Shown here one piece after another: positions 5,241 to 55,126 of a stretch of DNA of 64,000 nt. Positions within the stretch are counted from its first letter, which is position 1; each line of letters starts with the position of its first letter. The notes beneath the pieces are model-generated. The model was not told the origin of the DNA. It was given only the letters and a program-made list of their open reading frames with translations, and ran no database searches. A program made the position numbers and the translations under genes. Source of the stretch: Clostridia bacterium (lineage in GTDB: Bacteria; Bacillota; Clostridia; Christensenellales; QALW01); assembly GCA_045600145.1 (NCBI GenBank), contig JAZRXI010000023.1, positions 16,192 through 80,191 of the forward strand, read 5' to 3'.

Positions 5241-5259
5241 AGAAAAAGGAGACCGAAAA

Positions 5260-36981: not shown

Positions 36982-39900
36982 ATGAATTCTGAAGAAATGA
37001 CCCCTGCGATTATTTTTTCGACATTGGCAGAGAAAAAAGCCGTTAAAAAGGCAAAAGAATATACCGATGCCGCTATTGCCGCTCTCCCGAACGGTCTTGT
37101 ATATAAGGGCGCCGTTGCTTATTTTGACAATCTCCCGACATCCCAAGTGGAAATCGGAGATTGCTATACTGTAAAATATAAAGGCAGTACGGGAACGGAA
37201 GCAGACGGTACCGAATATGCTTGGGGAACTTTTGAGGGAGTAAATCAATGGATTCCTGTCGGTCCGGATATCACAGGCAAAGCGGATAAAGTTAAAAACG
37301 CAGTATCAGACAATCTCGCTGCATTGGATGCTGACGGTAATATCAAAGATTCGGGCGTTCCGAAAAATGATATTGCAAATGCGGTCAGTTATTCGGCACA
37401 GACGGGAAAAACCGATGCAGAAAAAACACAGGCGCGTGAGAATATTGAAGCGGAGCATAAGCACCCGTACATTTCGCTGCGCCGTATCGACTCATATTTA
37501 TATGAGGCAACATTTCAAGCACTTGCGCCGGAAATTGACCTCGATGTAGTAACGGGCGGTATGTGCAGTTCTTATGTTCAAGGCGGGAAACTTTATTCCA
37601 ATCTTGATTGGAATTACGCAGAAACGGCATCGTTCCACATCATCTGTCCCGGATTTGAGGGTATGGCGTTCTTGGGCTCTTTAACCGATACACAGCTTGA
37701 CGATAGGCTGATAGGTCAACTGCCGTATCACATTCGTGATGGTAGGAATGAAAACGGCATTATGGTTGCAACCCACATTCTTTATAATGATTGGGATGCA
37801 CACGGCAGCGGCGAAATCCCGCTTACGAAACTGCCGTATATCGCCTTGACACGCATTAAGTCTATGGCGACTATTGAGGATGACCTTGACGGAGTGCTTG
37901 ACAATCTTCACACAACTCCGGCTATGGATGCGGCGGAATATCTTATTCAAGTTATCGTATCAGACGGTACGACAACTTGTGTACTGCGACCCGGCAACAG
38001 TTCTGCGGGTACTTACGAAATTGTTGACATCACCGCAAATCCGAAGTTAACGAATTTCCGTTGGGTAAGCAATCCCACCGTAGCACGCACCAATCTGCAG
38101 AACAGACCGACAGGCGTTGAACGGTGGAATGAAATGCCGGAAGCGTTATCAGACCTTCGTTTTACAAAAGCCTATGAATCACCCATCCGTCTTTCAGAGT
38201 TTATCGGCATTAACCATACAACGAAAGACAGCACCGATGCAGAACTGACCGAAATTTATAATACGGCTCACGATTTGTACGAACAGCGTAGCAGAGACGG
38301 CTCGACCTGGCAGACAATGCATAGCGTTATCTATTCTCCGCACGGTATCGAACACCTTTGGGTGCAGGAGGATTGGTCGCGTGATTATGTAGGTATAGCG
38401 GGAGTGCCGACAAAACTTTCTGATTTGGAAAGTGATTCGCTACACCGTACCGTTACCGATGCAGAAAAAACGGCTTGGAACGGTAAAGCAGAAAAGGACA
38501 CCGAAGCAGAAAAAGGAAATGTCGCAATATTCGATATTGACGGTAATCCCTCTGATTCGGGATATAAGTATGCTCCCGAACAGAAAACCGCAAGTATGAA
38601 ACAAAGTGTCGGCGTTGACACAGAGGGTAAATTGTGGGTAGAAACCGATTCCGGCAAACCTCGCTTTGGTGTAACAGGTGTCGGCAAATCACCCACAACT
38701 CTTACACGCATATGGGATTCTACCGGCTTCACCGCAACGCCGAGCACCGATGCCGCCGCAGGCCATTCGGACTTTGACTCTTTCAAACCGTTCAACCGCA
38801 ATAAATGTGTCGGCTCTTGGGCGCTCGTTGGAGATAAAGCGGTATTTACTCCACAGGCATATTATGGCGATGTTGATTATGCCGAAGATGGCACTATGGG
38901 CGATTATGTCGCTATTGATGTAACACCGTTCTTTTGGTATCACGATAACAATTCGGGAACATTTGCTGTATCTGAAGGATGGCATTCGGGATGGGAGTAT
39001 CACCCTGTTTGCCTTGACGCTGACGGTAAGCCGAGAGAACACACCTATCTGCCGGCGTATGAACTCGGAATGGTAAACGGAAAACCTGTTTCACTTCCCG
39101 GATGTCATCCCGAATTCGGAGCATACAAAGCACTGTGGGATAAATGCAGATTGTATGGCGATGGCGGAAATATCAAAAACAAGTGCATTATGGAGCCGTC
39201 TGACGTCAACCATTACAATTGGTTGCTGATGACTATTGAATTTACAACGACCAATATGCGGGCCATAATGCAAGGTGCAACAAGTATGCGTTATTCATCC
39301 GATGCCGTTCAGCTTTCGGGTACGGATGTCAACTCTGTAGTCCTTACAAGCAGTGTTGGCGATGCCTATGTTGTAGGTCAATCAATCTACTTAGGCTCCG
39401 CACATTCGGACACGCCATCAAGTGTAGCGGCATACAATGTTGTTACAGCAATCGAAAAGTGCGATTCTGATGGGACATTAAATCCGTCCGGCACATACCG
39501 CAAAATTACCTTTGACGGAACACCGCGAACGGTAACTGCCGCAAGCACAAAAATCGGCTCACGCCCGTGGATAACCGGCTCAACAAATTCCGTGCTCGGT
39601 CATACCGGCTCACCTGTTTCCAACACGGACAGCAAGCACCCCTGCAAGTATCGTTGGCTTGAAAATCCTTATGGAAGTATCAATAAGACTTGCATCGACC
39701 TTATGGATGCGCGTGTAGAAGACGGCGACAGTTTCAAACTTCGGTGGTACTACAATAGCGAATACAAGCACAACGGCGCAACGGCAACATCCAATCCGTC
39801 ATCGGAAAGCGCGTTCACGGAAGCGGCAGGATGGCATTTGCTTTCTGTCGAAACCGATAAAGAACACTATGTCAACGGTTACATCAAAGAACTGTCGGCG

Positions 39901-40128
39901 GATGCTGATTATCCGACTGTTTTTGTCCCGACCAACACAACGGGTGGCTCTGCGACTACATATTACGCAGATTACGCCTACCTCGTGCATTCCCACGCGG
40001 TGCGTGCTGTTCGGCGCGGTGGCGACCTGGCCTTTGGCGCGTCCTATGGTCCGTGCTACTTCTACGCGGACTCCGCGCCCTCGTCCTCGCATTGGACGTA
40101 CGGCGCCGGGCTTTTCTTTGCCCAGTAG
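36982..40128 (+). CDS. tail fibre / receptor-binding protein; DGR target gene (variable C-terminus)
   Basis: 1048 aa. The last ~50 codons are the VR copy of the downstream TR, and the C-terminus has the RRGG...YGP.YF...W.YGAG pattern. Confidence 0.8.
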   Translation: MNSEEMTPAIIFSTLAEKKAVKKAKEYTDAAIAALPNGLVYKGAVAYFDNLPTSQVEIGDCYTVKYKGSTGTEADGTEYAWGTFEGVNQWIPVGPDITGKADKVKNAVSDNLAALDADGNIKDSGVPKNDIANAVSYSAQTGKTDAEKTQARENIEAEHKHPYISLRRIDSYLYEATFQALAPEIDLDVVTGGMCSSYVQGGKLYSNLDWNYAETASFHIICPGFEGMAFLGSLTDTQLDDRLIGQLPYHIRDGRNENGIMVATHILYNDWDAHGSGEIPLTKLPYIALTRIKSMATIEDDLDGVLDNLHTTPAMDAAEYLIQVIVSDGTTTCVLRPGNSSAGTYEIVDITANPKLTNFRWVSNPTVARTNLQNRPTGVERWNEMPEALSDLRFTKAYESPIRLSEFIGINHTTKDSTDAELTEIYNTAHDLYEQRSRDGSTWQTMHSVIYSPHGIEHLWVQEDWSRDYVGIAGVPTKLSDLESDSLHRTVTDAEKTAWNGKAEKDTEAEKGNVAIFDIDGNPSDSGYKYAPEQKTASMKQSVGVDTEGKLWVETDSGKPRFGVTGVGKSPTTLTRIWDSTGFTATPSTDAAAGHSDFDSFKPFNRNKCVGSWALVGDKAVFTPQAYYGDVDYAEDGTMGDYVAIDVTPFFWYHDNNSGTFAVSEGWHSGWEYHPVCLDADGKPREHTYLPAYELGMVNGKPVSLPGCHPEFGAYKALWDKCRLYGDGGNIKNKCIMEPSDVNHYNWLLMTIEFTTTNMRAIMQGATSMRYSSDAVQLSGTDVNSVVLTSSVGDAYVVGQSIYLGSAHSDTPSSVAAYNVVTAIEKCDSDGTLNPSGTYRKITFDGTPRTVTAASTKIGSRPWITGSTNSVLGHTGSPVSNTDSKHPCKYRWLENPYGSINKTCIDLMDARVEDGDSFKLRWYYNSEYKHNGATATSNPSSESAFTEAAGWHLLSVETDKEHYVNGYIKELSADADYPTVFVPTNTTGGSATTYYADYAYLVHSHAVRAVRRGGDLAFGASYGPCYFYADSAPSSSHWTYGAGLFFAQ
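39974..40110 (+). other. DGR variable region (VR)
   Basis: 137 nt, 121 identical to 40297-40433. Fifteen of the 16 mismatches fall at TR adenines. Confidence 0.85.
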
Positions 40129-40148
40129 GGGTGAATGCCGTAGGCAGA

Positions 40149-40187
40149 GGGGGTCGCAACCCCCTTGTTATCCGCGCGTAAGCGCGG
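40149..40187 (+). promoter_or_regulatory. two GC-rich tetraloop hairpins just 3' of VR and the fibre stop
   Basis: GGGGGT-cgca-ACCCCC (40149-40164) and CCGCGC-gtaa-GCGCGG (40172-40187). Confidence 0.6.
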
Positions 40188-40296
40188 TAATGATTTTCGT
40201 TATTTTATAACGAAGCAAAGACATTTCATATAAAATGCCTTATACTATATGATAACGGGATTATAATGTGCTTAGTGGGTGGCTTTTGTCCTCTCC

Positions 40297-40433
40297 ACGC
40301 CTACCTCGTGCATTCCCACGCGGTGCGTGCTGTTCGGCGCGGTGGCAACCTGAACAATGGCGCGAACTATGGTCCGTGCTACTTCAACGCGAACAACGCG
40401 CCCTCGAACTCGAATTGGAATTACGGCGCCGGG
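40297..40433 (+). ncRNA. DGR template region (TR)
   Basis: Invariant copy carrying 10 AAC/AAT codons where VR differs. It lies 130 nt upstream of the RT start. Confidence 0.85.
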
Positions 40434-40563
40434 ATTCCCTATACAGTCGAAATGCGAATGTTAGTATTGCACATTATTCTTCCGTGGTTCCTTTGGAATC
40501 GAAATGCCATCCGACTGGATCGGCTTGGTAGGTTTACTCTCGAAGAGCCGAAAGGATGAAAAG

Positions 40564-41823
40564 ATGAAACGTGCCGGGTATATTTGGGAAAAGTTTTGCA
40601 CAGTAGAAAATGCAACGAAAGCAATATATCGCGGTACCGAAAATAAGCGCAAAGACAGAGTCGTTGTTCGTCTATTCGGCAGCGGCTCTGCTTCGCATAC
40701 AGGAGAACTTGACCCGGACAAAGTCAGACGCTATGCCGAAAAATTGGTCGAATGTCTTGAAAGCGGAAATTGGCATCATCAAGAAGGTCTAAAGAAACCT
40801 ATTGTGTCAGGCGGAAAAGCAAGAGAAATCGAAATAGCAAAACTGCAAGACCATTTTATTCAATGGATGGCTATACTTGCCATTGAAGATTTGTTGCTCA
40901 AAAAGATGTATCGTTATTCTTGTGGGAATGTTCCCGGTCGTGGTATAGAATACGCAAGAAAAACGGTTGAAAAATGGGCAAGGTCGGGAGATTGCAAGTA
41001 TTTTGTTAAGCTCGATATCAGACACTTTTATCAAAATATAGATGCCGCGAGATTAGCAAGTATCATTCACGGTATGATAAAAGATAAGAGATTTTTGAGT
41101 GTCATTGACGAAATCATATATTCTACGGCCGTACCGGCAGAAGACGGAACTATGCGCGGTTTGGCAATAGGATATTATTCAAGCCCATGGCTCGCAAATA
41201 CATATCTGAACTCTCTTGACAGATTTATCACATCGGACTTATACAAGGAACGCAGAGGGAAACGCGTACATTATGTAAAACATTATTTGCGTAATGTAGA
41301 CGACCTGCTTCTTATGGGAAATTCCAAAAGTGATTTGAAAAAAGCCGTTAAACAGGTAATAGTTTTCTGCAAAGAAAATCTTGGTCTTGAAATCAAACCC
41401 GCTTGGGAGATATGTGCCATAGGAACTATGACGACCGATGGAAATGGAAAACAGATTGTTGCTCCTGGAACAAAAAAGATTGATATTGTCGGCTATACTT
41501 TTACAACCACTACAACAACGGTGCGCGACTATAATTTTCTCCGTTGCAGGAGATTGGCGAAAACTATTGCGAAACGATTGGAAGAAAGAAATGTCGTATT
41601 CCTTAGGAACGCCCGTGCGCTCGAAAGTAGATGCGGTTGGTTTTCACACGCCGATTCAGCATATTTCTTCAAGAATTACATTGACCCATATATTGACCGA
41701 AATTTTATTAAAGAGGTGATTTCTTATGCGGATAAGAACGGAATTATCGGAGATGCCGCCCGCGTTTACTGTCGCCAAAGAGGAGACGAAGGCGGTTATT
41801 ACATTTTATACGGATGTTGCTGA
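40564..41823 (+). CDS. DGR-type reverse transcriptase
   Basis: MKRAGYIWEKF...N-terminus, KLDIRHFYQNID, GLAIGYYSSPWLANTYLNSLD, LRNVDDLLL, IVGYTF. AAAGGA RBS upstream of ATG 40564. Confidence 0.9.
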   Translation: MKRAGYIWEKFCTVENATKAIYRGTENKRKDRVVVRLFGSGSASHTGELDPDKVRRYAEKLVECLESGNWHHQEGLKKPIVSGGKAREIEIAKLQDHFIQWMAILAIEDLLLKKMYRYSCGNVPGRGIEYARKTVEKWARSGDCKYFVKLDIRHFYQNIDAARLASIIHGMIKDKRFLSVIDEIIYSTAVPAEDGTMRGLAIGYYSSPWLANTYLNSLDRFITSDLYKERRGKRVHYVKHYLRNVDDLLLMGNSKSDLKKAVKQVIVFCKENLGLEIKPAWEICAIGTMTTDGNGKQIVAPGTKKIDIVGYTFTTTTTTVRDYNFLRCRRLAKTIAKRLEERNVVFLRNARALESRCGWFSHADSAYFFKNYIDPYIDRNFIKEVISYADKNGIIGDAARVYCRQRGDEGGYYILYGCC

Positions 41824-42214
41824 GGAACAACGCGAGGAAGGAAAGGCATACACCGCTATATCGTGGACTATCGAAAGATATTGGTCCCCCGATATAGAGC
41901 AGCGCATCGCAAACAACTTGTCGAAGTGGCTTGCAGAAGCGCAAGACGAATGTTACAACAAAGCCGCAGAAATCGTAAGAGCGGAAAGAAATGCGCTACT
42001 TACGAACAGCGACAAAGATATGGCGTTCGACAGGCTCAATATTGACCTGCCCGAAAACATTGCTGCCATAAACTTGCTCACTTCGTTTATTTCTTTTATC
42101 AAGTCTCTTAAAGAGATTATGACGGGCGCAGTGGCAAAATACAGACAGGCATTGAGAGACATACCGGAACAGGAAGGTTTCCCGTATGATGTAAAATGGC
42201 CTGAAAAGAAATAA
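41726..42214 (+). CDS. tail fibre assembly / chaperone-like protein
   Basis: C-terminus KYRQALRDIPEQEGFPYDVKWPEKK is typical of tail-fibre assembly proteins. AGAGGTG RBS. Overlaps the RT 3' end by 98 nt. Confidence 0.5.
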   Translation: MRIRTELSEMPPAFTVAKEETKAVITFYTDVAEEQREEGKAYTAISWTIERYWSPDIEQRIANNLSKWLAEAQDECYNKAAEIVRAERNALLTNSDKDMAFDRLNIDLPENIAAINLLTSFISFIKSLKEIMTGAVAKYRQALRDIPEQEGFPYDVKWPEKK

Positions 42215-43087: not shown

Positions 43088-44831
43088 AGGCGCAACGAAC
43101 GAAGAAAAGATTTGGAATTTCCTTATCGAAAAAGGTTTCAATGCATACGGTGTAGCCGGACTTATGGGAAACCTTTACGCCGAAAGCGGACTTCGTTCTG
43201 ACAATCTCCAAAACACCTACGAAAAGAAACTCGGTTATAACGATGCGGGTTATACTTCCGCCGTTGATAGTGGCGCGTATAACAACTTTGTGCGTGATTC
43301 GGCGGGGTACGGTTTGGCACAATGGACATATTGGTCGCGCAAGCAAAATCTTCTGAATTATGCAAAGAGTGTCGGCAAAAGCATAGGCGACCTCGAAATG
43401 CAACTCGGATTTCTTTATAAGGAATTGTCTGAAGGTTACAAGAGCCTGTGTCAGTTGCTGAAATCTGCCACATCGGTCAAAGATGCGTCAACGGCAGTTC
43501 TCACACAATTTGAACGCCCTGCAAACCAAAGCGAAAGCGCAAAGAATACAAGGGCTTCATACGGTCAGAAATACTATGACAAGTATTCAAAAACAGAAAC
43601 AAAAAAGGAGACGAAAACTATGTCGAAAATCTCAACGGCTGCTGAACTTGCAGAAAGGGCTATTGATGCAGCCAAAAATCACAAAACCCTTTATGTTATG
43701 GGCGGTATCGGATATCCGTTAAATGAACGCGGAAAGCAGAGAAGCCAAAACAATTCGTGGAATACCACGCCGGACCGCAAAGCATTCATTAACGCCGCAA
43801 CAGATGACACTTTCGCTTTTGACTGCGTGTGTTTTATCAAAAGTTTGCTTTGGGGATGGCGCGGCGACAAAACAAAGACTTACGGTGGTGCAGAATACGA
43901 GAGCAACGGAGTACCTGACATCGGTGCCGATACGATGATTACACGGTGTTCAGATGTCTCTACCGATTTTTCCAAAATTTCGGTTGGCGAAGCCGTATGG
44001 ATGCAGGGACACATCGGCATTTATGTCGGCAACGGTCTTGCGGTTGAATGTACTCCTGCGTGGGCTAACAAAGTACAGATTACCGCTTGCAACTGCACAA
44101 AGAGCGGATATAACCGCCGTAATTGGACAAAGCACGGTAAACTCCCGTATGTGAAATACGAAGCAGAAGCCGCCCCTGTGGTCGAGCCGGCAAAGCCTGC
44201 AGATACAAGCCTTAAATTCAAGGTTGGCGACATCGTCAATTTTACAGGAAAAACACATTACAAAAATGCAAACGCTGCGACCGGCACCGCCACCAAAGCA
44301 AGCAAAGCGAAGATTACTGCCGTATCTGCTTCCGGTAAACATCCGTATCATTGCCGCGCCGTAAACGATGGCGGTGCTTTTGTTGGCGGTGTTTACGGTT
44401 GGGTAAATGCCGCCGATGTTTCTGCCATCTCCGTTCCGAAACCTGCGGCTACTTCTGCAAAAAGCGTTGACGAACTTGCAAAGGAAGTTATTAACGGTAA
44501 ATGGGGTAACGGAGAAGAGCGCAAAAAGAAGCTCACCGAAGCGGGTTATGATTATGCCGAAGTTCAAAGCAAAGTAAACGAACTATGCGCAGCGCCGGCA
44601 AAGGCGGCACCGTGGACTCCTGCTATCGGAGACAAGGTCAACTATAAAGGCAAGGTGCATTATAAAAACGCAAATGCGCCAAGCGGATATGATTGCCGAG
44701 GCGGTTTGGCTACCATTACCGCAATTTATCAACTCGGAAAGAGTAAGCATCCGTATCATCTTGTAAAGGTGTCCGGCTCCGGCGCAACCGTTTACGGTTG
44801 GGTAGATGCAGGTACATTTGAAAAGGCGTAA
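43077..44831 (+). CDS. multidomain endolysin (lysozyme-like N-domain, NlpC/P60-like domain, SH3-like repeats, CW_7-like motif)
   Basis: GVAGLMGNLYAESG...YGLAQWT, then FDCVCFIKS...GHIGIYVG. Two repeats of VGD.VN..GK.HYKNANA...KHPYH. INGKWGNGEERKKKL. Confidence 0.85.
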   Translation: MGLKGATNEEKIWNFLIEKGFNAYGVAGLMGNLYAESGLRSDNLQNTYEKKLGYNDAGYTSAVDSGAYNNFVRDSAGYGLAQWTYWSRKQNLLNYAKSVGKSIGDLEMQLGFLYKELSEGYKSLCQLLKSATSVKDASTAVLTQFERPANQSESAKNTRASYGQKYYDKYSKTETKKETKTMSKISTAAELAERAIDAAKNHKTLYVMGGIGYPLNERGKQRSQNNSWNTTPDRKAFINAATDDTFAFDCVCFIKSLLWGWRGDKTKTYGGAEYESNGVPDIGADTMITRCSDVSTDFSKISVGEAVWMQGHIGIYVGNGLAVECTPAWANKVQITACNCTKSGYNRRNWTKHGKLPYVKYEAEAAPVVEPAKPADTSLKFKVGDIVNFTGKTHYKNANAATGTATKASKAKITAVSASGKHPYHCRAVNDGGAFVGGVYGWVNAADVSAISVPKPAATSAKSVDELAKEVINGKWGNGEERKKKLTEAGYDYAEVQSKVNELCAAPAKAAPWTPAIGDKVNYKGKVHYKNANAPSGYDCRGGLATITAIYQLGKSKHPYHLVKVSGSGATVYGWVDAGTFEKA

Positions 44832-44833
44832 TT

Positions 44834-45019
44834 ATGGATGAGATTATGGATTTTGTGTTGCTCGTTCTGATAATCGTCTGCTATGCCGTATGGATTGTGA
44901 GCCTTGCAAAATATGATGGGAAATGCCCGTGTGAGCCAAAGGATTGCAAAAACTGCGTGTATAGCGGTACAGGATGTAAGACAGATCCGAAAACAAAAGG
45001 AGAAGATTGTAATGATTAA
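44834..45019 (+). CDS. small membrane protein with Cys-rich tail
   Basis: 61 aa, one TM, CPCEPKDCKNC. Confidence 0.35.
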   Translation: MDEIMDFVLLVLIIVCYAVWIVSLAKYDGKCPCEPKDCKNCVYSGTGCKTDPKTKGEDCND

Positions 45020-45323
45020 CAGTATTTTCATTTCGGGTATATCCTTAACGGGATTGCTCGGATTTGCGGCGTTCTTAACTTCCGCGATAGTCGAAGTTAC
45101 AAAAAAGATTAAACCGTTTTCCCTTATGCCTACGCAACTGTGGTGTATGATTGTATCTTTTGTCGTATGTGTTTTGGCATACTTCGGGTACAGTGCATAC
45201 TCGGCGATACCTGTTCATTGGTATTTTGTCGCTTGCGTTGTTGTAGCATCGTTTATCGTGGCATATATCGCAATGTATGGATGGGACACGCTTAAAACAT
45301 TGTATGAACGATTTAACAAATAA
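45012..45323 (+). CDS. three-TM membrane protein (second holin-like protein)
   Basis: 103 aa from ATG 45012, with three hydrophobic segments. Confidence 0.5.
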   Translation: MINSIFISGISLTGLLGFAAFLTSAIVEVTKKIKPFSLMPTQLWCMIVSFVVCVLAYFGYSAYSAIPVHWYFVACVVVASFIVAYIAMYGWDTLKTLYERFNK

Positions 45324-45342
45324 ATAAAGAGTAAAAAACGAA

Positions 45343-45390
45343 AGCCCTGTACGCGCTAAATAATAGCGTTTACAGGGCTTTTTCTTTTTA
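45343..45390. terminator. bidirectional terminator between convergent units
   Basis: AGCCCTGTA..CGCTA-loop-TAGCG..TACAGGGCT flanked by an A-run and a T-run. Confidence 0.65.
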
Positions 45391-45403
45391 TCCGGTGTAA
45401 ACC

Positions 45404-45667
45404 TTATCGAATGTCTTTCCTACCGTTGCAACGGGCGTATGCGCGAACTGCGTGCCATTCTGTAATTAAATCTGCACATCCGCTACAATCGTGCAATGCT
45501 TCATCCATTCCGCACTGTTCACAAACATACACATCGGCTCGTCTGCTCAAACAGTTATTATGGAGTTTTTCGCGCATAGTCTTTTCTCCGCATCGTGGGC
45601 ATATCTCAAAATCTCCGCTTTGCTGTTCTTCGGCAATTTTTTCTATTATTTTTATCGCTTCAATCAT
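45404..45667 (-). CDS. zinc-ribbon protein
   Basis: GGGAGG RBS. CPRCGE...CEQCG...CSGC. 87 aa. Confidence 0.5.
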   Translation of the reverse strand: MIEAIKIIEKIAEEQQSGDFEICPRCGEKTMREKLHNNCLSRRADVYVCEQCGMDEALHDCSGCADLITEWHAVRAYARCNGRKDIR

Positions 45668-45686
45668 CGTCTTATACCTCCCACTG

Positions 45687-45860
45687 TTAGTTATTAAGAC
45701 CATCATACAATTCACCAACAACATTAGCAACGAATTGTATTGCCGGATAGTAATGAAGTTCTCTACTCAGTTCTAAAGCATATTCTTTTGCTGCTTCCAA
45801 TGTATTGAATCTTAGGTCTTTGTTTCTGTCAACAAAATAGTAACAAATTTCATAATCCAT
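45687..45860 (-). CDS. hypothetical small protein
   Basis: ATG 45860 lies 5 nt after the upstream stop, with a GGGGTG RBS. 57 aa. Confidence 0.4.
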   Translation of the reverse strand: MDYEICYYFVDRNKDLRFNTLEAAKEYALELSRELHYYPAIQFVANVVGELYDGLNN

Positions 45861-45865
45861 ATTAT

Positions 45866-46303
45866 TCACCCCTTTATCCAATAGTTTCCGATACATCCGC
45901 TTGTACTGTCCCATATATCATATACCTTAAATTCGAAATCTTTTACAATGCAAACAGTGTGATGACCGCCTATGTTACATACGATGCGCTTATTACGATT
46001 ATCGTTTTCGTTTAACCATTTGCACCACTCTTTTCCTGTGTATTTTGTTCCGTCTTTTTTTCTTGGTTGAGGTTGTTTCTTCCACCCTTTTGCTTCGAGA
46101 TATTTTGCTATCCCTTTTGTGTCTGCGTTGTCAAAACCTGTTATACACTGCATTTCTGCCTGTTCCATAACGCATTGATTGTAAGGTATTTCAAGAGCAG
46201 TACATAATGCTCTTGTTACACAATCCCCTGTGATTCGATTATGGGGATTTGCATTGTAATAATGAAATGTGCTTGTGTCAGAGAATTTCTCTTGTCTTGT
46301 CAT
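45866..46303 (-). CDS. putative papain-fold (Cys-His-Asp) protein
   Basis: NRITGDCVTRAL (Cys), GGHHTVCI (His), DIWD (Asp) in canonical order. Family assignment is tentative. Confidence 0.45.
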   Translation of the reverse strand: MTRQEKFSDTSTFHYYNANPHNRITGDCVTRALCTALEIPYNQCVMEQAEMQCITGFDNADTKGIAKYLEAKGWKKQPQPRKKDGTKYTGKEWCKWLNENDNRNKRIVCNIGGHHTVCIVKDFEFKVYDIWDSTSGCIGNYWIKG

Positions 46304-46334
46304 TTTTATTACTTCCTTTCATAATGTGCGATTG

Positions 46335-46571
46335 TTAGGTATAATCTTCGATGTCGCACTGTGCCGACTCAAGATTGCTTATACAATATTCGATGTTTGA
46401 TATCATTTCATCAATTGTATCATATCTTTCTTGCTCTTTGTCCGTCATATCGCGGTCGTTGTCTAACGCTTTCTCTTCGATTGAATCCCGCTTTTCTTCA
46501 AGTTTTTCAATTTTTGTGTTGAGTTCGTCTATGATATTTTGGATTGAATTGTATTCCTTTGTAAGTTTCAT
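46335..46571 (-). CDS. hypothetical acidic coiled-coil protein
   Basis: 78-aa ORF. Confidence 0.45.
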   Translation of the reverse strand: MKLTKEYNSIQNIIDELNTKIEKLEEKRDSIEEKALDNDRDMTDKEQERYDTIDEMISNIEYCISNLESAQCDIEDYT

Positions 46572-46595
46572 TTCTTATATTCCTTTCAATCATCA

Positions 46596-46859
46596 TTAAA
46601 GATTCGCCATTATTTGTTTTGTCTCGTTATATGAGGGGAAAACGATTTTTACAAGATATCCTTTTTTATCTCCTACGATATATTTGCCTTTGATGTGTTG
46701 AAATCTTCCACCGTTCTTTTCAACCCATTTCTTGATTTTTTCTTCAACCGTGTCCATGTAAATGTTTTTGTTGTTTTTTGCTATACCACAGAAATATGTG
46801 TCTGCGTATTCGGTCATCGGTTTAAGATGACTTAAAAGGTTTTTATCAGTTAGTGTCAT
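46596..46859 (-). CDS. hypothetical protein
   Basis: ATG at 46859 preceded by GAAAGGAAG. 87 aa. Confidence 0.45.
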   Translation of the reverse strand: MTLTDKNLLSHLKPMTEYADTYFCGIAKNNKNIYMDTVEEKIKKWVEKNGGRFQHIKGKYIVGDKKGYLVKIVFPSYNETKQIMANL

Positions 46860-46873
46860 TTCGTGTCTTCCTT

Positions 46874-47050
46874 TCACGCTTCAATTATTTCGGCTCTTTC
46901 AAGGCGTATGCCTTCGGCTTTTAACTGTTCTCTGTAAATCTTTTTTGCTTCGGTTTTGTTCTTTGCGGTAACATACTCAACATAGCAATCGTGGTAGCGC
47001 GTACCGCCCGATACATAACTGATAAATGCGTGAATTTCAAACTCTTTCAT
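46874..47050 (-). CDS. hypothetical small protein (58 aa), absent from the ORF track
   Basis: Strong AAGGAGG RBS 8 nt upstream of ATG 47050. Sequence MKEFEIHAFISYVSGG... Confidence 0.5.
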   Translation of the reverse strand: MKEFEIHAFISYVSGGTRYHDCYVEYVTAKNKTEAKKIYREQLKAEGIRLERAEIIEA

Positions 47051-47065
47051 TTTTCGTCTGCCTCC

Positions 47066-47094
47066 TTGACTTTTTTGCCTTACCGTGTTATAAT
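47066..47094 (+). promoter_or_regulatory. near-consensus sigma-70-type promoter TTGACT-17-TATAAT
   Basis: -35 at 47066-47071 and -10 at 47089-47094, with exactly 17 nt spacing. Confidence 0.6.
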
Positions 47095-47100
47095 CAAGGC

Positions 47101-47177
47101 GGTCGGGGTAAGGCTCCCGACTCGCCTTTGAGCGTTGAGTGAGTGGTTACTGTGGTAGGTGGCACTCACTCTTTTTT
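47101..47177 (+). ncRNA. candidate ~77-nt small RNA, antisense to an intergenic part of the minus-strand operon
   Basis: Starts ~7 nt after the -10. Hairpin 1 is GTCGGG/CCCGAC. Hairpin 2 is GAGTGAGTG/CACTCACTC (47137-47171), followed by T6. Confidence 0.45.
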
Positions 47178-47295
47178 ACTTTTCATCGTTCATTATGCGT
47201 TTTACGCTTTCCCGAAGTTCTTCGAGCGTTTCGCACTTTTCGATGAGTTCCAAGATTGCTTTGAGCAATGCCTGCGTTACATTCAAATCGTTCAT
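47176..47295 (-). CDS. hypothetical 39-aa protein, first ORF of the minus-strand operon
   Basis: GTGAGGAA RBS. Sequence MNDLNVTQALLKAILELIEK... Confidence 0.3.
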   Translation of the reverse strand: MNDLNVTQALLKAILELIEKCETLEELRESVKRIMNDEK

Positions 47296-47343
47296 TTCCT
47301 CACTTCCTTTCGTAAGAGGTTTTGTCCTCTGCCTTACAAGTAT

Positions 47344-47372
47344 ATAATACACTATTTAGTGTATTTTGTCAA
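47344..47372 (-). promoter_or_regulatory. leftward promoter TTGACA-17-TATTAT overlapping the 16-bp palindrome TACACTAttTAGTGTA (47348-47363)
   Basis: -35 complement at 47367-47372 and -10 complement at 47344-47349. The palindrome sits in the spacer. Confidence 0.55.
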
Positions 47373-47421
47373 GTGTTTTTTGATAAAAAATCAAAAAAAT
47401 TTTTATATTTTCTAAAAATCG

Positions 47422-47450
47422 TTGACAAAATACATTTTTTAGTGTAAAAT
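47422..47450 (+). promoter_or_regulatory. rightward promoter TTGACA-17-TAAAAT with a related half-operator TAGTGTA
   Basis: Both promoters share the 13-nt string TTGACAAAATACA and the TAGTGTA element at the same spacing. Confidence 0.55.
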
Positions 47451-47478
47451 ACAAGCAACGATAAAACGAAAGGTCGGA

Positions 47479-47700
47479 ATGAATATGTCAATGGCTGAAA
47501 AAATCCGAATTCTCCGCGTAAAAAAGGGCAATCTGTCAGAGAGAGAATTGGCGGTGCGTATGGGCGACACTCCGCAAAATCTCAACAACAAGATGAAGCG
47601 CGATGATTTTAAGATAAGCGAACTGACGAAAGTAGCGGATGCGCTCGGCGTGGAACTTGTTGTTAAGTTCGTTGATAGAGAAACAGGCGAAGAATTGTAA
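47479..47700 (+). CDS. XRE-family HTH protein (Cro-like)
   Basis: EKIRILRVKKGNLSERELAVRMGDTPQNLNNKMKR. Confidence 0.7.
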   Translation: MNMSMAEKIRILRVKKGNLSERELAVRMGDTPQNLNNKMKRDDFKISELTKVADALGVELVVKFVDRETGEEL

Positions 47701-47707
47701 AATAAAA

Positions 47708-47731
47708 GACCGAAGCCGCGAAGCTCCGGTC
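47708..47731. terminator. hairpin between convergent HTH genes
   Basis: GACCGAAGC-cgcgaa-GCTCCGGTC. Confidence 0.45.
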
Positions 47732-47749
47732 CTTTATGTAAGGAACTGA

Positions 47750-48013
47750 CTAATCATCATCTTTGTGCGGTGCGTGGCCTGCTCGCGTTTTTGTTGTAGT
47801 GTACGGGGAAGGTACTCTTACAATAATTTCCGACAGTTCGCAGCCTAACGCCTCACAGATTAGGTCAAGATGTTCAAGGTTTACTCTCTCGGCTATTTCG
47901 TGATACAATTCATTTATTGTGGATGGTCGTATCCCGGTAGCACGAGCGAGGTCTGCTTGAGTCCACCGAAGTTCGCCCAACTTCGTGGATAATCGAATTC
48001 TAATCATAGCCAT
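47750..48013 (-). CDS. XRE-family HTH regulator
   Basis: LGELRWTQADLARATGIRPSTINELYH; AAAGGAG RBS. Confidence 0.7.
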   Translation of the reverse strand: MAMIRIRLSTKLGELRWTQADLARATGIRPSTINELYHEIAERVNLEHLDLICEALGCELSEIIVRVPSPYTTTKTRAGHAPHKDDD

Positions 48014-48072
48014 GCTCGCTCCTTTCGTTAAATTCTAACAGGTTTTGGTGATACTTGCTTGAATTTGTTAGA

Positions 48073-48093
48073 TTATAACGAAATGCGTTATAA
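48073..48093. promoter_or_regulatory. 21-bp palindrome TTATAACG-n5-CGTTATAA overlapping a minus-strand TATAAT
   Basis: Lies 60-80 nt upstream of the 47750-48013 gene start. Candidate autoregulatory operator. Confidence 0.4.
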
Positions 48094-48114
48094 GTTCGTA
48101 AGCATAGCAAAAGC

Positions 48115-48149
48115 AAAAAGCATTTAGGTATAAAACCTAAATGCTTTTT
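48115..48149. terminator. bidirectional terminator hairpin (15-bp stem)
   Basis: AAAAAGCATTTAGGT-ataaa-ACCTAAATGCTTTTT, downstream of the tRNA on the minus strand. Confidence 0.7.
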
Positions 48150-48229
48150 CTACTTGCGCAAACCCTTGCAACGAGATATCCGGCAAAGAAAAACACCTGC
48201 CAATTATCTGTGTTCAAATTTGCGCCACT

Positions 48230-48321
48230 TGGCGGAGAGAAAGGGATTCGAACCCTTGAATGGGTATTAGCCATTACACGATTTCCAGTCGTGCGCCTTA
48301 GACCAACTCAGCCATCTCTCC
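48230..48321 (-). tRNA. tRNA-Ser (anticodon GGA), CCA encoded
   Basis: Acceptor GGAGAGA/TCTCTCC, anticodon loop CTGGAAA, long variable arm, T-loop GTTCGAATC, 3' GCCA. Confidence 0.85.
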
Positions 48322-48468
48322 AAGCCATGGTATAGTATAAGCGGAAGAAGAAAATTTGTCAAGCGTAATTTCTTAAATTAAATGCGGCGTATAAAAAAAC
48401 ACTTTCAATTTTCGGTGATCTCTGCTATAATATGTACAGTGGAATATTATCACCTAAGGAGCTTTGAC

Positions 48469-50326: not shown

Positions 50327-53300
50327 ATGAAAAAACGGATAATAAGCGCATTGCTTATCATAATGCTTTTACTGCTTTGTTCATGCGGGCAGGAAAAACA
50401 AGCGGAAAATGTAAATCTGCTTAAAAACGGGAGCTTCGAGACTGTAAACGGTACTTTGCCGGAGCAATGGACGCTTGAACGCTACGATTCAAGCGACCCC
50501 GTTGACAATTACGGTATAGTCAACCGCGCTGATTCGCCGGACGGGGCAAACGCCGTAAGATTGCAAAATGATGCGCCGAATGATACCAGATTCATTCAAG
50601 AGGTCGCGGTAGAACCGAATACGTATTATAAGCTGTCTGCAATGGTGAAAACCGGAAGCGTTTACGGCGAAAACGCCACGGGTGCGAATATTTCCTGTAT
50701 GCAGACTTATTGCGTGAGCGATTTTGTTACAGCCGATGAGGAATGGACGCGCGTTACCGTTTACGGTAAAACAGACCGCAAAACTAAATCAGTGACCGTA
50801 GCCGTACGCCTTGGATATTATAGTGCCGAGTGCAGTGGATGCGCGTATTTTGATGATATTTCACTTGAAAAGATTTCAAAGCTTCCGGAGGACGAGGAAG
50901 CACATTCAATGGCAAAATTTGAGTTTTCGGCACCCAAAACCGAAAAAAAATCGTCCGAAGTCGCAGATATAGAGATCTCCGTTTTGTTCAGAGCGGGGTT
51001 GTATTTCGTGCTGCTCGCGTTATTTGTGTATCTTGCACTTCAGAACAAGGATAAATTTTCGGTAAAAACCGCATATATAATAATCGCTGTTTCGGTGCTT
51101 GTGCGGCTTGTTGCGTCGGTCATGTACACCGGATTTAAGGTGGATATAAACTGCTTCTCCGTTTGGGGCAGACATATGGCAAATGTTGGTCCGTTTAAGT
51201 TCTATTCGGAGGATTATTTCTGCGATTATCCTCCGCTGTATATGCTTGTCATAGGACTTATTTCGGCGATATTCTCGAAAATATCACTTTCGCAGGGAAT
51301 AGGACTCATGATACTTAAGCTTCCCGCTGTGGCTTGCGACGCGCTTGGAGCTTTGATAATACTTAAGGAAGCCAAAAAGCACGCGGATGAACGCATCGCT
51401 TCGATACTTGCGATAGTTTATGCCGTTCTGCCTACCGCGATACTCAATTCCGCGATATGGGGGCAGGTGGATTCGGTACTTGTGCTGTTTATGCTGCTTA
51501 CATTTGCGCTGCTTGACAATGACAAATTCGGTTTAAGCGTCGTAACGTATTTTATCGGTTTGCTGTTCAAGCCTCAGGCGATACTTTTTGCGCCTGTCAT
51601 GGCGCTTGCCGCATTCAGGGAATTTCAGGAGATCTTTACCGATAAGACGACGGCAAAAAGGCGCTTGCTCGGCGGCTTCGGCGGTTTGGCGGTATCGACT
51701 GCCGTATTTGCGTTTTTGTCGATTTTGATGCGCAACGGACAAAGACCGCTGTGGCTTGTTGAAAAATACACGGAAACGCTCGGCTCATACGATTACGCCA
51801 CGCTTAATTCATTCGGATTCATGGGTCTCATAGGCGGGCAATGGGCGGACACGGCAAAAACCACGGTTTTCGGCATAAGCTATTCACTGCTGGGGACATT
51901 GCTTTTGATATTCGTTGTTGCCGCGTCACTGATTCTGTTCATACTTGCGTCAAAAAAAACCGGTGGCAAGGCGGACAGAAAATATTTGTGGCTTGTTGCG
52001 GTATTACTGCTTTCGGGGGTCGTAACTTTTGCAACGCGCACACATGAAAGATATATTTTCCCCGTCATGGCGTTGTTGATCGTCTGTGCATTCCGCTTTG
52101 ATGACATGCGCTATCTGTGGCTTACTGTCGCATACGGTTTTGTTAATTTCGTAAATACGGCGGCAGTATTGTATATTTACGAAGACCTCACTGTCTATAT
52201 GAGCAAAAACGACGCGCTGTTTATATGCGGCTCGCTTGCCGCGACGCTTTTGTTCGTTTTGACGGCAATATTTGCTTTCGATACTGTTCTTGGAAATAAA
52301 AAGATAACACTTGACACAAAGAAAAGCAAAGAGGCGGAGAATATTTCCGGAAAGGCTGACAAGTCCGGGAAGGCTGTCAAGCTTGAACGTCTTTTTGCGC
52401 GCAAAAGATTTAAGCTCCCGAGGGTAACGTGGAAGGATATCGTTGTCTGCACGCTTATTACCGTAATATACGCAGGCGTTGCATTTACGAAGCTCGGTGA
52501 TACGAAAGCTCCTGAGACGCAGTGGCACACGAAACTTTCACCCGTTTATGTCACTGCGGATCTGGGCGAAGATACACAGATAGATGATATTTTATTCAGT
52601 TCCGCGGCTTCGCACGGAAGCTTTACACTGTCGTATTCGTCCGATGGCGAAAAATATTCGGACTACGGCACTTATTCTCCGTCGGCAATAAGCGTTTGGC
52701 AGAGCTGTAACGGAAATCCGTTTTCGGCACGGTATGTAAGGCTTACCGCACGTTCGGCAATTTCACTGAACGAGCTTGCGTTTATGCACGACGGAAAGCG
52801 TATAATACCCGAAAACGTAGATACGTTCGTTACTCCTATGGATTCGACCTGCGGAAAGGGCGATTATCTTTTTGATTATACAGGTGATGTCGCCATGGAT
52901 GAAAAGCTCGACGTTCCCGTTACGGAATGGACTTCAGGCGGAAAATACATTCTTCATTTTCCGTCACCCGTTTCAATTTATGAGATCCGGGGCTATATCA
53001 CGTATTCTGAGCCGGACGCAAGCGTGGATATCATGATCCCGACAGAGGACGGTTGGACGCTTGCTGTACAGCTTATGCCTTACGGCAATATACCGGATTG
53101 GTGCGAAATGAGCTATGCCGTTCCCGCTGATGACCTCAACGACATTACAGAAATAATGCTTGACGGCGGCGACGGTGCCGTGCATGTGGCTGAAATAGCG
53201 GTCTTGACTGAAAACGGTTTATTGGAAAATATGACATTTGAGCCGCTTGACGGAGCGGACGAAACACAGATAAAGAATTGCTTTGACGAGCAGGAATCAT

Positions 53301-55126
53301 TTGAGGCCTCAAGAGAGATCTCCGAGAGATTTATGTCATCAACGCCGTGGAAGATCACCTCGTGCGCTGATTACGTTATTGCCGATTTCGGAGAAATAAA
53401 GCATATCTACCGCGGCACATACTATGCAAGTGTATGCTCGGGCGTGTTCTCGGTATATTATTCATATGACGGAGTAAATTGGTCTGAAAAGGAAAAGCAT
53501 ACGGAAAATGCGGGTGACTTGTACTATTGGCGCGGATTGCCGTCAAACGAAGGAACATACGATGCTCTTGAAACACGTTATGTTGCCATATGCGGCGAAA
53601 CGCAGAATATGCGCTTCATCGAGTTTGCGTTTTTTGAAGCCGCGGATTCGACAACGCCGATCCCCATAGTAAACATTATGGCTTCGTCCGAGGGTGAGAA
53701 CGGCGGCAAAAATATTTTTGATGAGCAGACGCTTGTGCCTACCCGCGCTTCGTACATGAACAGCATGTATTTTGATGAAATATATCATGCCCGTACTGCG
53801 TATGAAAGTGCAAACGGGCTGAGCATCTATGAATGGACGCATCCGCCACTGGGAAAAGATATGATATCGTGGTGCGTTTCACTTATGGGAATGAATCCGT
53901 TCGCGTGGCGCTTTGCGGGAACACTCGCGGGCGTACTGATGATACCCGCAATGTATTTCATCGGACTTTTGATGTTCCGCAAGACGTCGTGGGCGGCTTG
54001 TACCGCAGCACTTATATCACTTGATGGTATGCACTTTGTACAGACCCGCATCGCCACGATAGATTCGTTCTCGGTAATGTGGATAATATATATGTTCCTG
54101 TTCATGTATTGGTATTACAGCATCAGCTTCTATGACAAAAAGCTGTCGAAGACGTTCGTTCCGCTCGGACTGTGCGGACTGTGCTTCGGGCTCGGCGCGG
54201 CAAGTAAATGGATATGCCTCTATGCCGGTGCCGGACTTGCGATACTCTTCTTTATAACGGTGTACCGCAGGTTTGACGAATATCGCACTGCAAAAGCTAT
54301 GCTTGATGATTCAAGCGGCACCGAAAGAGAATATCTTGAGCATGTTTGCGATTCGTTTGTTCCGAACCTTTGCAAAACGATACTGTTCTGCATACTTGTA
54401 TTTGTGATAATTCCCGTTATCATATACTGTGCGTCATATTATCCGTATTTCCATGCCGAGGGCGAAACACGCGCATGGTATAAGATAATTCTTGACAATC
54501 AGACGGCTATGTTCAATTATCATTCAAAGCTCGATGCGACGCATCCGTTTCAATCCGATTGGTACACTTGGCCTGTCATCTACCGTCCGATGTTCTTCTA
54601 TTCGGGCAAGAATCTTCCCAAAGGGAGGATGGAATGTATTTCAACATTCGGAAACCCCGCCGTATGGTACGCAGGGCTTGCATGCACGCTTATCGGCATA
54701 GTGATATTAGTAATGCGTTTCTTGGGCGAAAAGCTTCCTGCGGACGCACGCAAATCGGGATTTGCTTCACTGTTTGCGCCGGGCGATGAAACATTGAATG
54801 ACAGAGATGAGCGCGATACAAGATTGCTTATTTTCCTGCTTATCGGTGTTGCGTGCAACCTGTTGCCGTGGGTAGGTGTAAGCAGATGTATATTCATCTA
54901 CCACTACTTTGCCACAGTGCCGTTTATTATCATGTTTACGGTATACGTTGTCCGCTACCTCTGCCGTAAGTACAGAAAAAGCGGGATCGCGGTGCTTGCG
55001 GTGCTTCTTATAGCGGCACTTGTACTGTTCATAATGTTCAAGCCGGTTTGGAGCGGCACTGAGGTCTCAAAGGAATATGTAAACACATATCTGCGCTGGT
55101 TTGACAGTTGGGTGTTCGGAAGCTGA
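50327..55126 (+). CDS. giant membrane glycosyltransferase: lipoprotein signal + CBM-like domain + GT-C module + discoidin-like domains + GT39/PMT-like module
   Basis: LLLLCSCG lipobox; NLLKNGSFE CBM start; DYPPLY multi-TM block; ...ARYVRLTA... discoidin-like ends; YFDEIYHARTAYE...HPPLGK PMT signature. Confidence 0.65.
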   Translation: MKKRIISALLIIMLLLLCSCGQEKQAENVNLLKNGSFETVNGTLPEQWTLERYDSSDPVDNYGIVNRADSPDGANAVRLQNDAPNDTRFIQEVAVEPNTYYKLSAMVKTGSVYGENATGANISCMQTYCVSDFVTADEEWTRVTVYGKTDRKTKSVTVAVRLGYYSAECSGCAYFDDISLEKISKLPEDEEAHSMAKFEFSAPKTEKKSSEVADIEISVLFRAGLYFVLLALFVYLALQNKDKFSVKTAYIIIAVSVLVRLVASVMYTGFKVDINCFSVWGRHMANVGPFKFYSEDYFCDYPPLYMLVIGLISAIFSKISLSQGIGLMILKLPAVACDALGALIILKEAKKHADERIASILAIVYAVLPTAILNSAIWGQVDSVLVLFMLLTFALLDNDKFGLSVVTYFIGLLFKPQAILFAPVMALAAFREFQEIFTDKTTAKRRLLGGFGGLAVSTAVFAFLSILMRNGQRPLWLVEKYTETLGSYDYATLNSFGFMGLIGGQWADTAKTTVFGISYSLLGTLLLIFVVAASLILFILASKKTGGKADRKYLWLVAVLLLSGVVTFATRTHERYIFPVMALLIVCAFRFDDMRYLWLTVAYGFVNFVNTAAVLYIYEDLTVYMSKNDALFICGSLAATLLFVLTAIFAFDTVLGNKKITLDTKKSKEAENISGKADKSGKAVKLERLFARKRFKLPRVTWKDIVVCTLITVIYAGVAFTKLGDTKAPETQWHTKLSPVYVTADLGEDTQIDDILFSSAASHGSFTLSYSSDGEKYSDYGTYSPSAISVWQSCNGNPFSARYVRLTARSAISLNELAFMHDGKRIIPENVDTFVTPMDSTCGKGDYLFDYTGDVAMDEKLDVPVTEWTSGGKYILHFPSPVSIYEIRGYITYSEPDASVDIMIPTEDGWTLAVQLMPYGNIPDWCEMSYAVPADDLNDITEIMLDGGDGAVHVAEIAVLTENGLLENMTFEPLDGADETQIKNCFDEQESFEASREISERFMSSTPWKITSCADYVIADFGEIKHIYRGTYYASVCSGVFSVYYSYDGVNWSEKEKHTENAGDLYYWRGLPSNEGTYDALETRYVAICGETQNMRFIEFAFFEAADSTTPIPIVNIMASSEGENGGKNIFDEQTLVPTRASYMNSMYFDEIYHARTAYESANGLSIYEWTHPPLGKDMISWCVSLMGMNPFAWRFAGTLAGVLMIPAMYFIGLLMFRKTSWAACTAALISLDGMHFVQTRIATIDSFSVMWIIYMFLFMYWYYSISFYDKKLSKTFVPLGLCGLCFGLGAASKWICLYAGAGLAILFFITVYRRFDEYRTAKAMLDDSSGTEREYLEHVCDSFVPNLCKTILFCILVFVIIPVIIYCASYYPYFHAEGETRAWYKIILDNQTAMFNYHSKLDATHPFQSDWYTWPVIYRPMFFYSGKNLPKGRMECISTFGNPAVWYAGLACTLIGIVILVMRFLGEKLPADARKSGFASLFAPGDETLNDRDERDTRLLIFLLIGVACNLLPWVGVSRCIFIYHYFATVPFIIMFTVYVVRYLCRKYRKSGIAVLAVLLIAALVLFIMFKPVWSGTEVSKEYVNTYLRWFDSWVFGS

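Follow-up and report, generated by a model that had tools for sequence, protein, structure and literature searches.

A probable avd-less diversity-generating retroelement directed at the tail-fibre tip of a Bacillota-type prophage

A 64,000-nt stretch of a Clostridia bacterium genome (GenBank assembly GCA_045600145.1, contig JAZRXI010000023.1, positions 16,192 to 80,191 of the forward strand), referred to here at its full length as the window, very probably carries a functional, compact and accessory-free diversity-generating retroelement (DGR). Its parts follow one another in the order target gene with a variable repeat (VR), template repeat (TR) and reverse transcriptase (RT), in the tail module of a Bacillota-type, siphovirus-like prophage. 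As judged from its sequence, the element is probably active today. Its class is well known, with thousands of described examples among which it is fairly ordinary, and the points of modest specialist interest are the SP and NVDD variants of its RT, an RT-18-like spacer with a helix to the TR flank in an avd-less system, and a rewritten template. The core features are as follows.

36982..40128 (+), DGR target gene, encoding a 1048-aa tail-fibre/receptor-binding-type protein with the VR at its C-terminus
39974..40110 (+), VR, the last 137 nt of the homology, encoding ...AYLVHSHAVRAVRRGGDLAFGASYGPCYFYADSAPSSSHWTYGAG
40099..40125 (+), 3' boundary of the VR resembling an initiation of mutagenic homing (IMH) site, consisting of the GC-rich invariant TACGGCGCCGGG at 40099-40110 and then a stretch that partly matches the TR flank
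40297..40433 (+), TR, with 27 A and with ten AAC/AAT codons in its 3' 87 nt
40564..41823 (+), DGR reverse transcriptase of 419 aa, with motif 4 IGYYSSPWLAN and catalytic box NVDD

The repeat pair and its recurrence beside related reverse transcriptases

An ungapped comparison at an offset of 323 gives 121 identities over 137 positions between the VR and the TR, and the pair is the sole long repeat family (D1) reported by the repeat finder, with no third TR-like copy within the 64-kb window. The 5' 50 nt are fully identical, and all 16 mismatches lie within the 3' 87 nt. Fifteen of the 16 fall on TR adenines, the remaining one being T40421 in the TR, which is G40098 in the VR. The TR has 27 adenines in 137 nt (four in the 5' 50 nt and 23 in the 3' 87 nt), and the binomial probability of such a placement is 3.4e-10; if position 40434/40111 is also counted (140 nt), 16 of 17 mismatches are at TR adenines (P = 9e-11). 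The adenine changes affect codon positions 1 and 2 only (15 of 15) and are distributed over ten AAC/AAT codons, which read GAC, GCC, TTT, TCC, TAC, GAC, TCC, TCC, CAT and ACG in the target gene and leave the VR without a stop codon. A preliminary description, made from the letters of the window alone, had given the same repeat coordinates, identity, invariant first 50 nt, mismatch placement and ten codon changes, all of which were reproduced exactly, and had read them as an adenine-specific transfer from TR to VR, a signature that stands at P ~3e-10.

The VR ends 18 nt before the TAG stop codon (40126-40128) of the 1048-aa open reading frame (ORF) 36982-40128, and its GC content is 0.69 vs 0.48 across the whole target gene. 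After the shared TACGGCGCCGGG, the next ~15 nt match only in part, with non-adenine differences and an indel, and the corresponding IMH* segment of the TR flank lies at 40422-40448 in the pairwise alignment. This decay from GC-rich identity to partial similarity had been proposed earlier and is found as described; by likeness to the IMH and IMH* of BPP-1, we infer an IMH/IMH*-type 3' boundary (PMC5758913, PMC3240598). The downstream copy had also been called non-coding. It holds as an adenine-rich template, but it is not free of ORFs, for a 97-aa ATG ORF (40266-40559, +) runs through the TR in the frame of the VR and into the spacer. Gene callers annotated a counterpart of this ORF in the relative L140, and no family match was found for it in Pfam; it is probably a by-product of the coding ancestry of the TR.

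Direct repeats of ~140 nt can also come from duplication, and the pair could be read as a drifted segmental duplication of the 3' end of the gene, lying next to an unrelated RT by chance. Drift, however, would not place 15 of 16 differences on the adenines of one copy and at codon positions 1-2 only (P ~3e-10), and the same oriented unit stands beside RT relatives in 98 sequences. A duplication is effectively refuted, and its probability is close to nil.

The recurrence of the DGR unit was assessed in 138 sequences (137 loci encoding RT relatives, together with the window) by self-comparison upstream of the RT, and a pair was counted if at least 80% of its mismatches fell on adenines of the RT-proximal copy. 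The VR-TR-RT order on the RT strand with adenine-biased mismatches was found in 98 of the 138, and in many of the loci with no detected pair the RT stands at the edge of its contig. The 93 unique VR/TR pairs have 1471 mismatches, 1387 of them at TR adenines, a descriptive figure only, as the pairs had passed the 80% filter. Free of that filter is a comparison of nine groups of independent contigs, each with an identical TR but different VRs, in which TR adenines account for 120 of 125 variable VR columns; one of these groups (L012/13/14) belongs to the IGxxxSP sub-clade of the window itself. The expectation that variation would be confined to TR-adenine positions is thereby borne out among family contigs that share a TR, and as read from these contigs, adenine-directed diversification in the RT family is natural and ongoing.

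The reverse transcriptase and its RNA surroundings

The RT matches Pfam RVT_1 (7e-17) and PHROG 1423 (2.6e-75), and in BLASTP it shows 23% identity over residues 65-369 (E 1e-17) with bRT, the RT of BPP-1. Its start is most likely the ATG at 40564, which has an AAAGGA ribosome-binding site and agrees with the MKRxG N-termini of homologues. With this start, and not with the first ATG of the ORF at 40504, the TR-RT distance of 130 nt given in the preliminary description holds. The N-terminus and thumb align with bRT, while the alignment also shows internal insertions and an extension of ~50 aa beyond the bRT C-terminus; C-terminal extensions are reported for ~20% of DGR RTs (PMC5758913). The possibility that this tail is a fused Avd has no support, as the RT profile has no similarity to the Avd of BIP-1 (probability 0.15%).

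The type of RT was addressed by a neighbour-joining tree of 34 RTs over 345 columns, composed of phage RTs, plasmid group II RTs and 19 family members. Known DGR RTs together with the window family were split from the group II and group II-like RTs in 100% of 200 bootstraps, and the DGR side comprises the BPP-1-type bRT, VHML, ANMV-1, Hankyphage, Idris and FP_Epona. The DGR type that had been assigned to this RT earlier is upheld by this clustering. A tblastn search against phage genomes returned 109 records, mostly phages known or annotated to carry such RTs, including Bordetella BPP-1-type phages, VHML, Hankyphage p00, ANMV-1, crAss-like phages, FP_Epona and Idris.

The RT could otherwise belong to a group II intron, a retron or a defence system (DRT/Abi), with the repeat unrelated to it. 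By score, its best NCBIfam and PDB matches are indeed group II intron RTs, and PADLOC gives weak generic RT/DRT hits; the PDB sequence search returned LtrA, other group II RTs and a 328-aa 'Reverse transcriptase' at similarly weak E-values, and sequence searches alone leave the RT type undecided. The scores against the NCBIfam group II, retron, Abi and Drt models are, however, far under their cut-offs (93.5 vs 300 bits for group II), the window yielded no RNA family of introns or retrons, and the likeness of the N-terminus and thumb to bRT, like the full bootstrap support in a tree of DGR and group II RTs, speaks for a DGR enzyme. Another RT class is therefore extremely improbable. In the segments on either side of the TR, the following features were recognized.

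40136..40146 (+), hairpin 1, TGCC-GTA-GGCA, whose position is kept in relatives while the stem sequence varies and pairing is retained
40148..40165 (+), hairpin 2, a GC-rich inverted repeat AGGGGGT-CGCA-ACCCCCT, 35-38 nt past the VR
40172..40187 (+), hairpin 3, CCGCGC-GTAA-GCGCGG followed by a T-rich tail, terminator-like
40218..40253 (+), overlapping pair of sigma-70-like promoter matches (by consensus only), ~45-80 nt 5' of the TR
40434..40563 (+), TR-RT spacer, a structured RNA of 130 nt according to covariation on 26 aligned spacers

The stop codon of the target gene is embedded in the family-conserved TAGGGGTGAAT, which precedes hairpin 1. Target recognition in BPP-1 needs a GC-rich hairpin or cruciform with a 4-nt loop, and the hairpins of phage DGRs have a stem of 7-10 bp and a GRNA loop and lie 4-34 bp from the VR (PMC3240598). 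Hairpin 2 fits the pattern of a 7-bp GC-rich stem with a 4-nt loop. Among 26 relatives, 95.5% of its cells are paired and four of its seven pairs are compensatory, with none of 500 shuffles reaching the observed score, and by analogy it is a candidate target-recognition hairpin or cruciform. Hairpin 3 probably ends transcription of the target gene. Sigma-70-like sites number four in the region, against 1.0 +/- 0.9 in shuffles, and the matches at 40218-40253 are a possible promoter of a transcript comprising TR, spacer and RT.

The spacer contains a long-range helix 1 that pairs the 3' flank of the TR with downstream bases (40443-40448/40513-40518; 94.8% paired, four of six pairs compensatory) and a hairpin (40486-40491/40495-40500; 99.2% paired, five of six pairs compensatory), both assessed on the 26 spacers. 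Further helices were recognized at 40509-40512/40554-40557 and 40520-40525/40546-40551, together with an invariant GAAAU at 40501-40505. The minimum-free-energy fold of TR plus spacer is no more stable than that of shuffled sequences (z -1.28), and it is therefore covariation that carries the structural claims. In Rfam, positions 40486-40565 match RT-18 (RF03021) over the full model length with 27.4 bits against a gathering threshold of 41.3 (E 0.004 in a 181-nt search), on the same strand and immediately upstream of the RT start codon, and the match includes the hairpin, GAAAU, UAGUAG and GAAA elements. In four relatives, RT-18 is likewise the best match at the same place, directly before the RT start, with 28-32 bits and below threshold; a search of 13 relatives at the gathering threshold gave no RT-18 match, and only the permissive search did so. 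With scores of 27-32 bits in the window and these four relatives, and with an additional long-range helix in the family, reaching the 3' flank of the TR, that the model does not include, the spacer resembles a divergent relative of RT-18 rather than a certified member of RF03021.

The prototype for comparison is the DGR of BPP-1/BIP-1 (mtd-avd-TR-brt). In both systems the VR is at the extreme 3' end of a phage tail-fibre gene, a TR of ~135 nt lies ~130-140 nt upstream of the RT, the mutable codons are Asn AAY, identity at the GC-rich 3' end gives way to a diverged, IMH/IMH*-like stretch, and a GC-rich hairpin with a 4-nt loop stands downstream of the VR. The VR scaffolds can be aligned as well, GGxWxxGxxxG...PSxSxxxIGAR in BPP-1 with GGxLxxGxxxG...PSxSxWxYGAG in the window (PMC3240598, PMC6182149, PMC5758913). 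The two differ in the presence of avd, which BPP-1 has and the window does not, in RT length (419 aa vs 328 aa for bRT), in the RT motifs (IGxxxSP and NVDD vs IGxxxSQ and YMDD), in the hairpin loop (CGCA vs GAAA) and in the spacer, which is like RT-18 in the window, while the TR-RT region of BPP-1 carries RT-10 (PMC5737381). Rfam reported no RT-10 match in the window spacer. Weinberg et al. (2017) placed RT-10 in the BPP-1 spacer and speculated that other RT motifs belong to other DGRs (PMC5737381), and the BPP-1 spacer folds back onto the 3' end of the TR, with the 2'-OH of spacer (Sp) residue A56 priming cDNA synthesis (PMC6182149).

In its gene order the window agrees with the accessory-free 'Architecture A1' (avd-less Lineage 3), which consists of target, TR and RT and is devoid of avd, HRDC, MSL and CH1 (PMC5758913). 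Neither an SP motif 4 nor an RT-18-like spacer was found in the searched passages of that source. The nearest annotated phage RT relatives are those of Butyrivibrio phage Idris/Closwp03 and Faecalibacterium phage FP_Epona (28-29% identity, E 3e-38 and 3e-28). Both share the gene order of the window, namely a tail protein, a gap of ~375-445 nt, the RT, small genes and an endolysin, and their RTs group with the window family in the tree, yet they are distant in sequence and have the canonical SQ and YMDD.

Departures from the canonical design and the history of the template

A number of points weigh against a working DGR. The motif-4 signature of DGR RTs is [LIV]GxxxSQ, although it is no definition of them, and group II introns have QGxxxSP; the window has IGYYSSP, in which the first residue is hydrophobic and DGR-like but SP replaces SQ. 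The catalytic box is NVDD and not YxDD (window 41293-41304, RT residues 244-247), although the DD pair is kept. One of the 16 mismatches between VR and TR is not at an adenine, and the TR has lost three of 13 ancestral AAY (Asn) codons. Hairpin 2 has the loop CGCA, which departs from the GRNA consensus (PMC3240598), and hairpin 3 has GTAA. The Avd family of Pfam is absent from 53 ORFs of 85-190 aa between 20 and 50 kb, and in BPP-1 bRT alone is inactive (PMC6182149). No VR from a close relative of the window element was found in three near-identical contigs or by pattern scans. Finally, two AlphaFold runs, with alignments of 14 and 119 sequences, gave models of the target tip with low confidence (predicted local distance difference test, pLDDT, of 61.8 and 64.3), and Foldseek searches of the PDB with these low-confidence models returned no C-type lectin match.

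The departure in motif 4 is shared by others. Relatives at 45-50% RT identity carry IGxYTSQWFAN, but the P variant is present in 33 family loci, 21 of which have adenine-biased TR/VR pairs, and the Q of motif 4 is therefore dispensable for the DGR signature in this family. The first residue of the catalytic box is Y in 118 and N in five of 123 family RTs; NVDD is common to the window and three relatives with 97-99% identity, and NIDD arose independently in L035.

The rival that these departures favour is a decaying or inactive relic, in which the NVDD RT or a VR-converted TR no longer supports mutagenic retrohoming and the VR is a frozen allele. It draws on the rarity of N in the catalytic box, the lost AAY codons, the non-adenine mismatch and the failure of contig and pattern searches to recover VR copies from close relatives. 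On the other hand, the 419-aa RT ORF is intact with all invariant family residues, the DD pair among them, and its pN/pS (nonsynonymous to synonymous polymorphism) of 0.13-0.23 among the four close relatives of the NVDD lineage argues for a working protein under continued purifying selection, as judged from sequence comparison. L035, with its independently acquired N, has a VR that differs from its TR at adenines in 15 of 18 mismatches. Ten AAY codons are left in the TR of the window, every one of them changed in the VR with no stop codon created, and the hairpins and spacer RNA are intact. A relic is accordingly unlikely.

As to the missing VRs of close relatives, the three contigs with 97-99% identity stop at the equivalents of window positions 40151, 40272 and 40341, that is, between VR and TR or within the TR, and they lack a VR because assemblies break on the VR/TR repeat. 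These contigs came from cluster mates of the RT, as the exact RT protein itself was found in no contig; RTs of 97-99% identity occur in SRR1221442, ERZ27247137 and JGI 3300001598. Exact and degenerate pattern scans of metagenome and viral contigs with the constant 5' part of VR/TR and with the peptide just upstream of the VR recovered no copies.

The absence of Avd does not exclude membership among the DGRs, because 29% of 372 curated DGRs have the avd-less 'Architecture A', with Avd found in 74% of DGRs (PMC5758913). Wu et al. (2018) noted an avd-less lineage and inferred Avd-independent retrohoming (PMC5758913). The layout of the window leaves no room for such a gene between the core parts, with 168 nt from the stop codon to the TR and with VR-TR and TR-RT gaps too short for a gene, and this tight VR-TR-RT spacing is common to the whole RT family.

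The lost AAY codons can be traced by comparison with relatives. The window TR at 40297-40346 encodes ...AYLVHSH..., the same as the window VR, whereas ...ANLVNSN... stands at this place in the TRs of two relatives with 97-99% identity and of 12 of 16 more distant relatives compared; the TRs of L011, L021, L027 and L083 each deviate from it at one non-Asn position. At the codon level, TAC/CAT/CAC in the window TR correspond to AAC/AAT/A(A/C)C in the close relatives (L138 26-75, L140 148-197), and the three losses lie within 16 nt, in a lineage that differs by 1-3% overall. The 5' third of the TR thus appears to have been overwritten from a diversified VR, since one conversion would explain the pattern better than three point mutations, and the identity of the first 50 nt of VR and TR would be its consequence. 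The conversion could have come about by recombination or by mis-homing of mutagenised cDNA. The same VR-like change of the TR is seen in L036 and partly in L030, and the TRs of L138 and L140 each have another AAY altered; on these sequences, the template is not strictly invariant in the lineage of the window, and its VR-like bases suggest that templates may be editable by their own products.

The tail-fibre tip, the proposed mechanism and the prophage setting

The target of the DGR matches PHROG 'tail protein' families over residues 548-1046 (phrog_5302, 1.2e-21; phrog_17147, 1e-30). Target C-termini of the family share ...GGSxTTYYxDY...VRxVRxGGxxxxGxxxGxxxxxAxxAxSxxxWxxGxxL, and when a profile of 54 of them was compared with all PDB sequences, the top match was the VR segment of TaqVP (5vf4, E 1.2e-3), together with Mtd VR segments (1yu4 and other alleles, E 0.014-2.8), the TaqVP and Mtd matches being aligned in register (GGxW...G...S...IGAR). 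With hhalign, the comparison with Mtd gave an E-value of 0.0034 and a probability of only 9.5%. Foldseek against BFVD returned unnamed viral proteins and 'tail collar fiber' proteins (best E 8.7e-4, TM 0.47). The C-type lectin fold that had been suggested for the tip is plausible from the sequence profiles, which carry weak Mtd/TaqVP likeness, but the predicted structures did not bear it out.

On the proposed mechanism, a transcript starting between hairpin 3 and the TR would span the TR and the structured spacer of 130 nt, and probably the RT message as well. The spacer would fold into the RT-18-like domain, with pairing seen in covariation and the role of the domain presumed, and helix 1 would tie bases 3' of the TR to the spacer, comparable to the folding of Sp back on the TR in BPP-1; by this analogy, helix 1 may set the site of cDNA priming. 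The RT would then copy the TR into cDNA with misincorporation opposite adenines, as the mismatch pattern suggests, and the cDNA would replace the VR up to a 3' boundary at the GC-rich GGCGCCGGG/IMH-like end beside the conserved GC-rich hairpins. Avd would take no part, as its absence indicates. The outcome is visible in the sequence: each of ten Asn codons can be turned into a codon for any of 15 amino acids, which allows ~6e11 variants, and up to ~1e16 when all 27 adenines are included. Such changes would affect the Mtd-like receptor-binding tip at the C-terminus of the 1048-aa tail fibre and, with it, host range.

A broader proposal goes further and is, taken as a whole, tentative and rather doubtful. 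It holds that the family follows an Avd-independent DGR mode with IGxxxSP, a tolerated NVDD, a conserved ~50-aa tail, an RT-18-like spacer and helix-positioned internal priming as from Sp A56, combined with an editable TR whose VR-derived 5' third would have permanently locked three tail-fibre residues that once varied.

In this uncultured Bacillota prophage of gut or rumen type, the element points to the receptor-binding tip, and the ~10 residues predicted to set host range could help in forecasting host range and in engineering phages. As a resource, the family has more to offer than the one element. Its ~100 compact avd-less VR-TR-RT units, with conserved post-VR hairpins and a covarying spacer RNA, constitute a comparative data set for avd-less cDNA priming and targeting, a question that Wu et al. 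(2018) did not settle (PMC5758913). Furthermore, the adenine-mutagenesis signature can evidently arise without two textbook RT motifs, as the SP and NVDD variants indicate.

The preliminary description had assigned the target to a prophage, and the neighbouring genes agree with this. Upstream of the target gene lie a terminase, an SPP1-type portal, a minor capsid protein, a 1326-aa tape-measure-like ORF and tail proteins; downstream are a tail-fibre-assembly-like gene and an endolysin with CW_7 repeats. Past a tRNA-Ser gene (48230-48321), bacterial core genes follow (rbgA-like GTPase, RNase HII, polA, coaE, argC and argJ), and the element therefore sits in a prophage, its phage tail module being flanked beyond the tRNA-Ser by host genes. 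The gene just downstream of the TR-RT unit is a genomic neighbour and no component of the DGR:

41726..42214 (+), tail-fibre assembly/chaperone-like gene, matching Pfam Phage_tail_APC (7e-15) and several PHROG tail-fibre-assembly families

Relatives of the RT occur in metagenome-assembled genomes (MAGs) of Clostridia, Oscillospiraceae and Lachnospiraceae, and the CW_7 lysin together with these MAG sources supports a Bacillota host, as far as sequence can indicate it. A megablast search against 50,697 phage records found no named phage close to the 5.2-kb DGR region.

The probable prophage end lies at 44800-48400, where small helix-turn-helix (HTH) regulators (47479-47700, +, and 47750-48013, -) stand beside the tRNA-Ser(GGA) gene (48230-48321, -). 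No integrase was found at 44800-48400, and the relative L138 (98.7% identical) has a 518-aa serine recombinase directly after the holin. In the head-morphogenesis module, a match to the Rfam GP20-a RNA (RF02991) at 22430-22527 (+; 64.7 bits vs a threshold of 47.2) coincides with the beginning of ORF 22455-23195. Genes in the early part of the prophage (582-2393, 5038-5943 and 14628-15794) code for a C5 cytosine methylase, a radical-SAM protein and a PAPS (3'-phosphoadenosine-5'-phosphosulfate)-reductase-like protein, which may have DNA-modification or anti-restriction functions.

Among other contigs, a shorter peptide pattern, GGSATTYYAD, matched only L156, an unrelated viral contig in which, by eye, two similar C-terminal coding copies lie ~260 nt apart (300-1100), the downstream one being richer in adenine; the arrangement resembles a further DGR with a target scaffold of the same kind. 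The related DGR-carrying viral contig L007 has a type II hammerhead ribozyme, above threshold at 48.2 bits (11175-11240, -). On the host side of the window, the gene at 50327-55126 (+) encodes a 1599-aa protein in which F5/8 type C (discoidin) domains are fused to the C-terminal region of a PMT-family protein O-mannosyltransferase, an unusual architecture in a bacterium.

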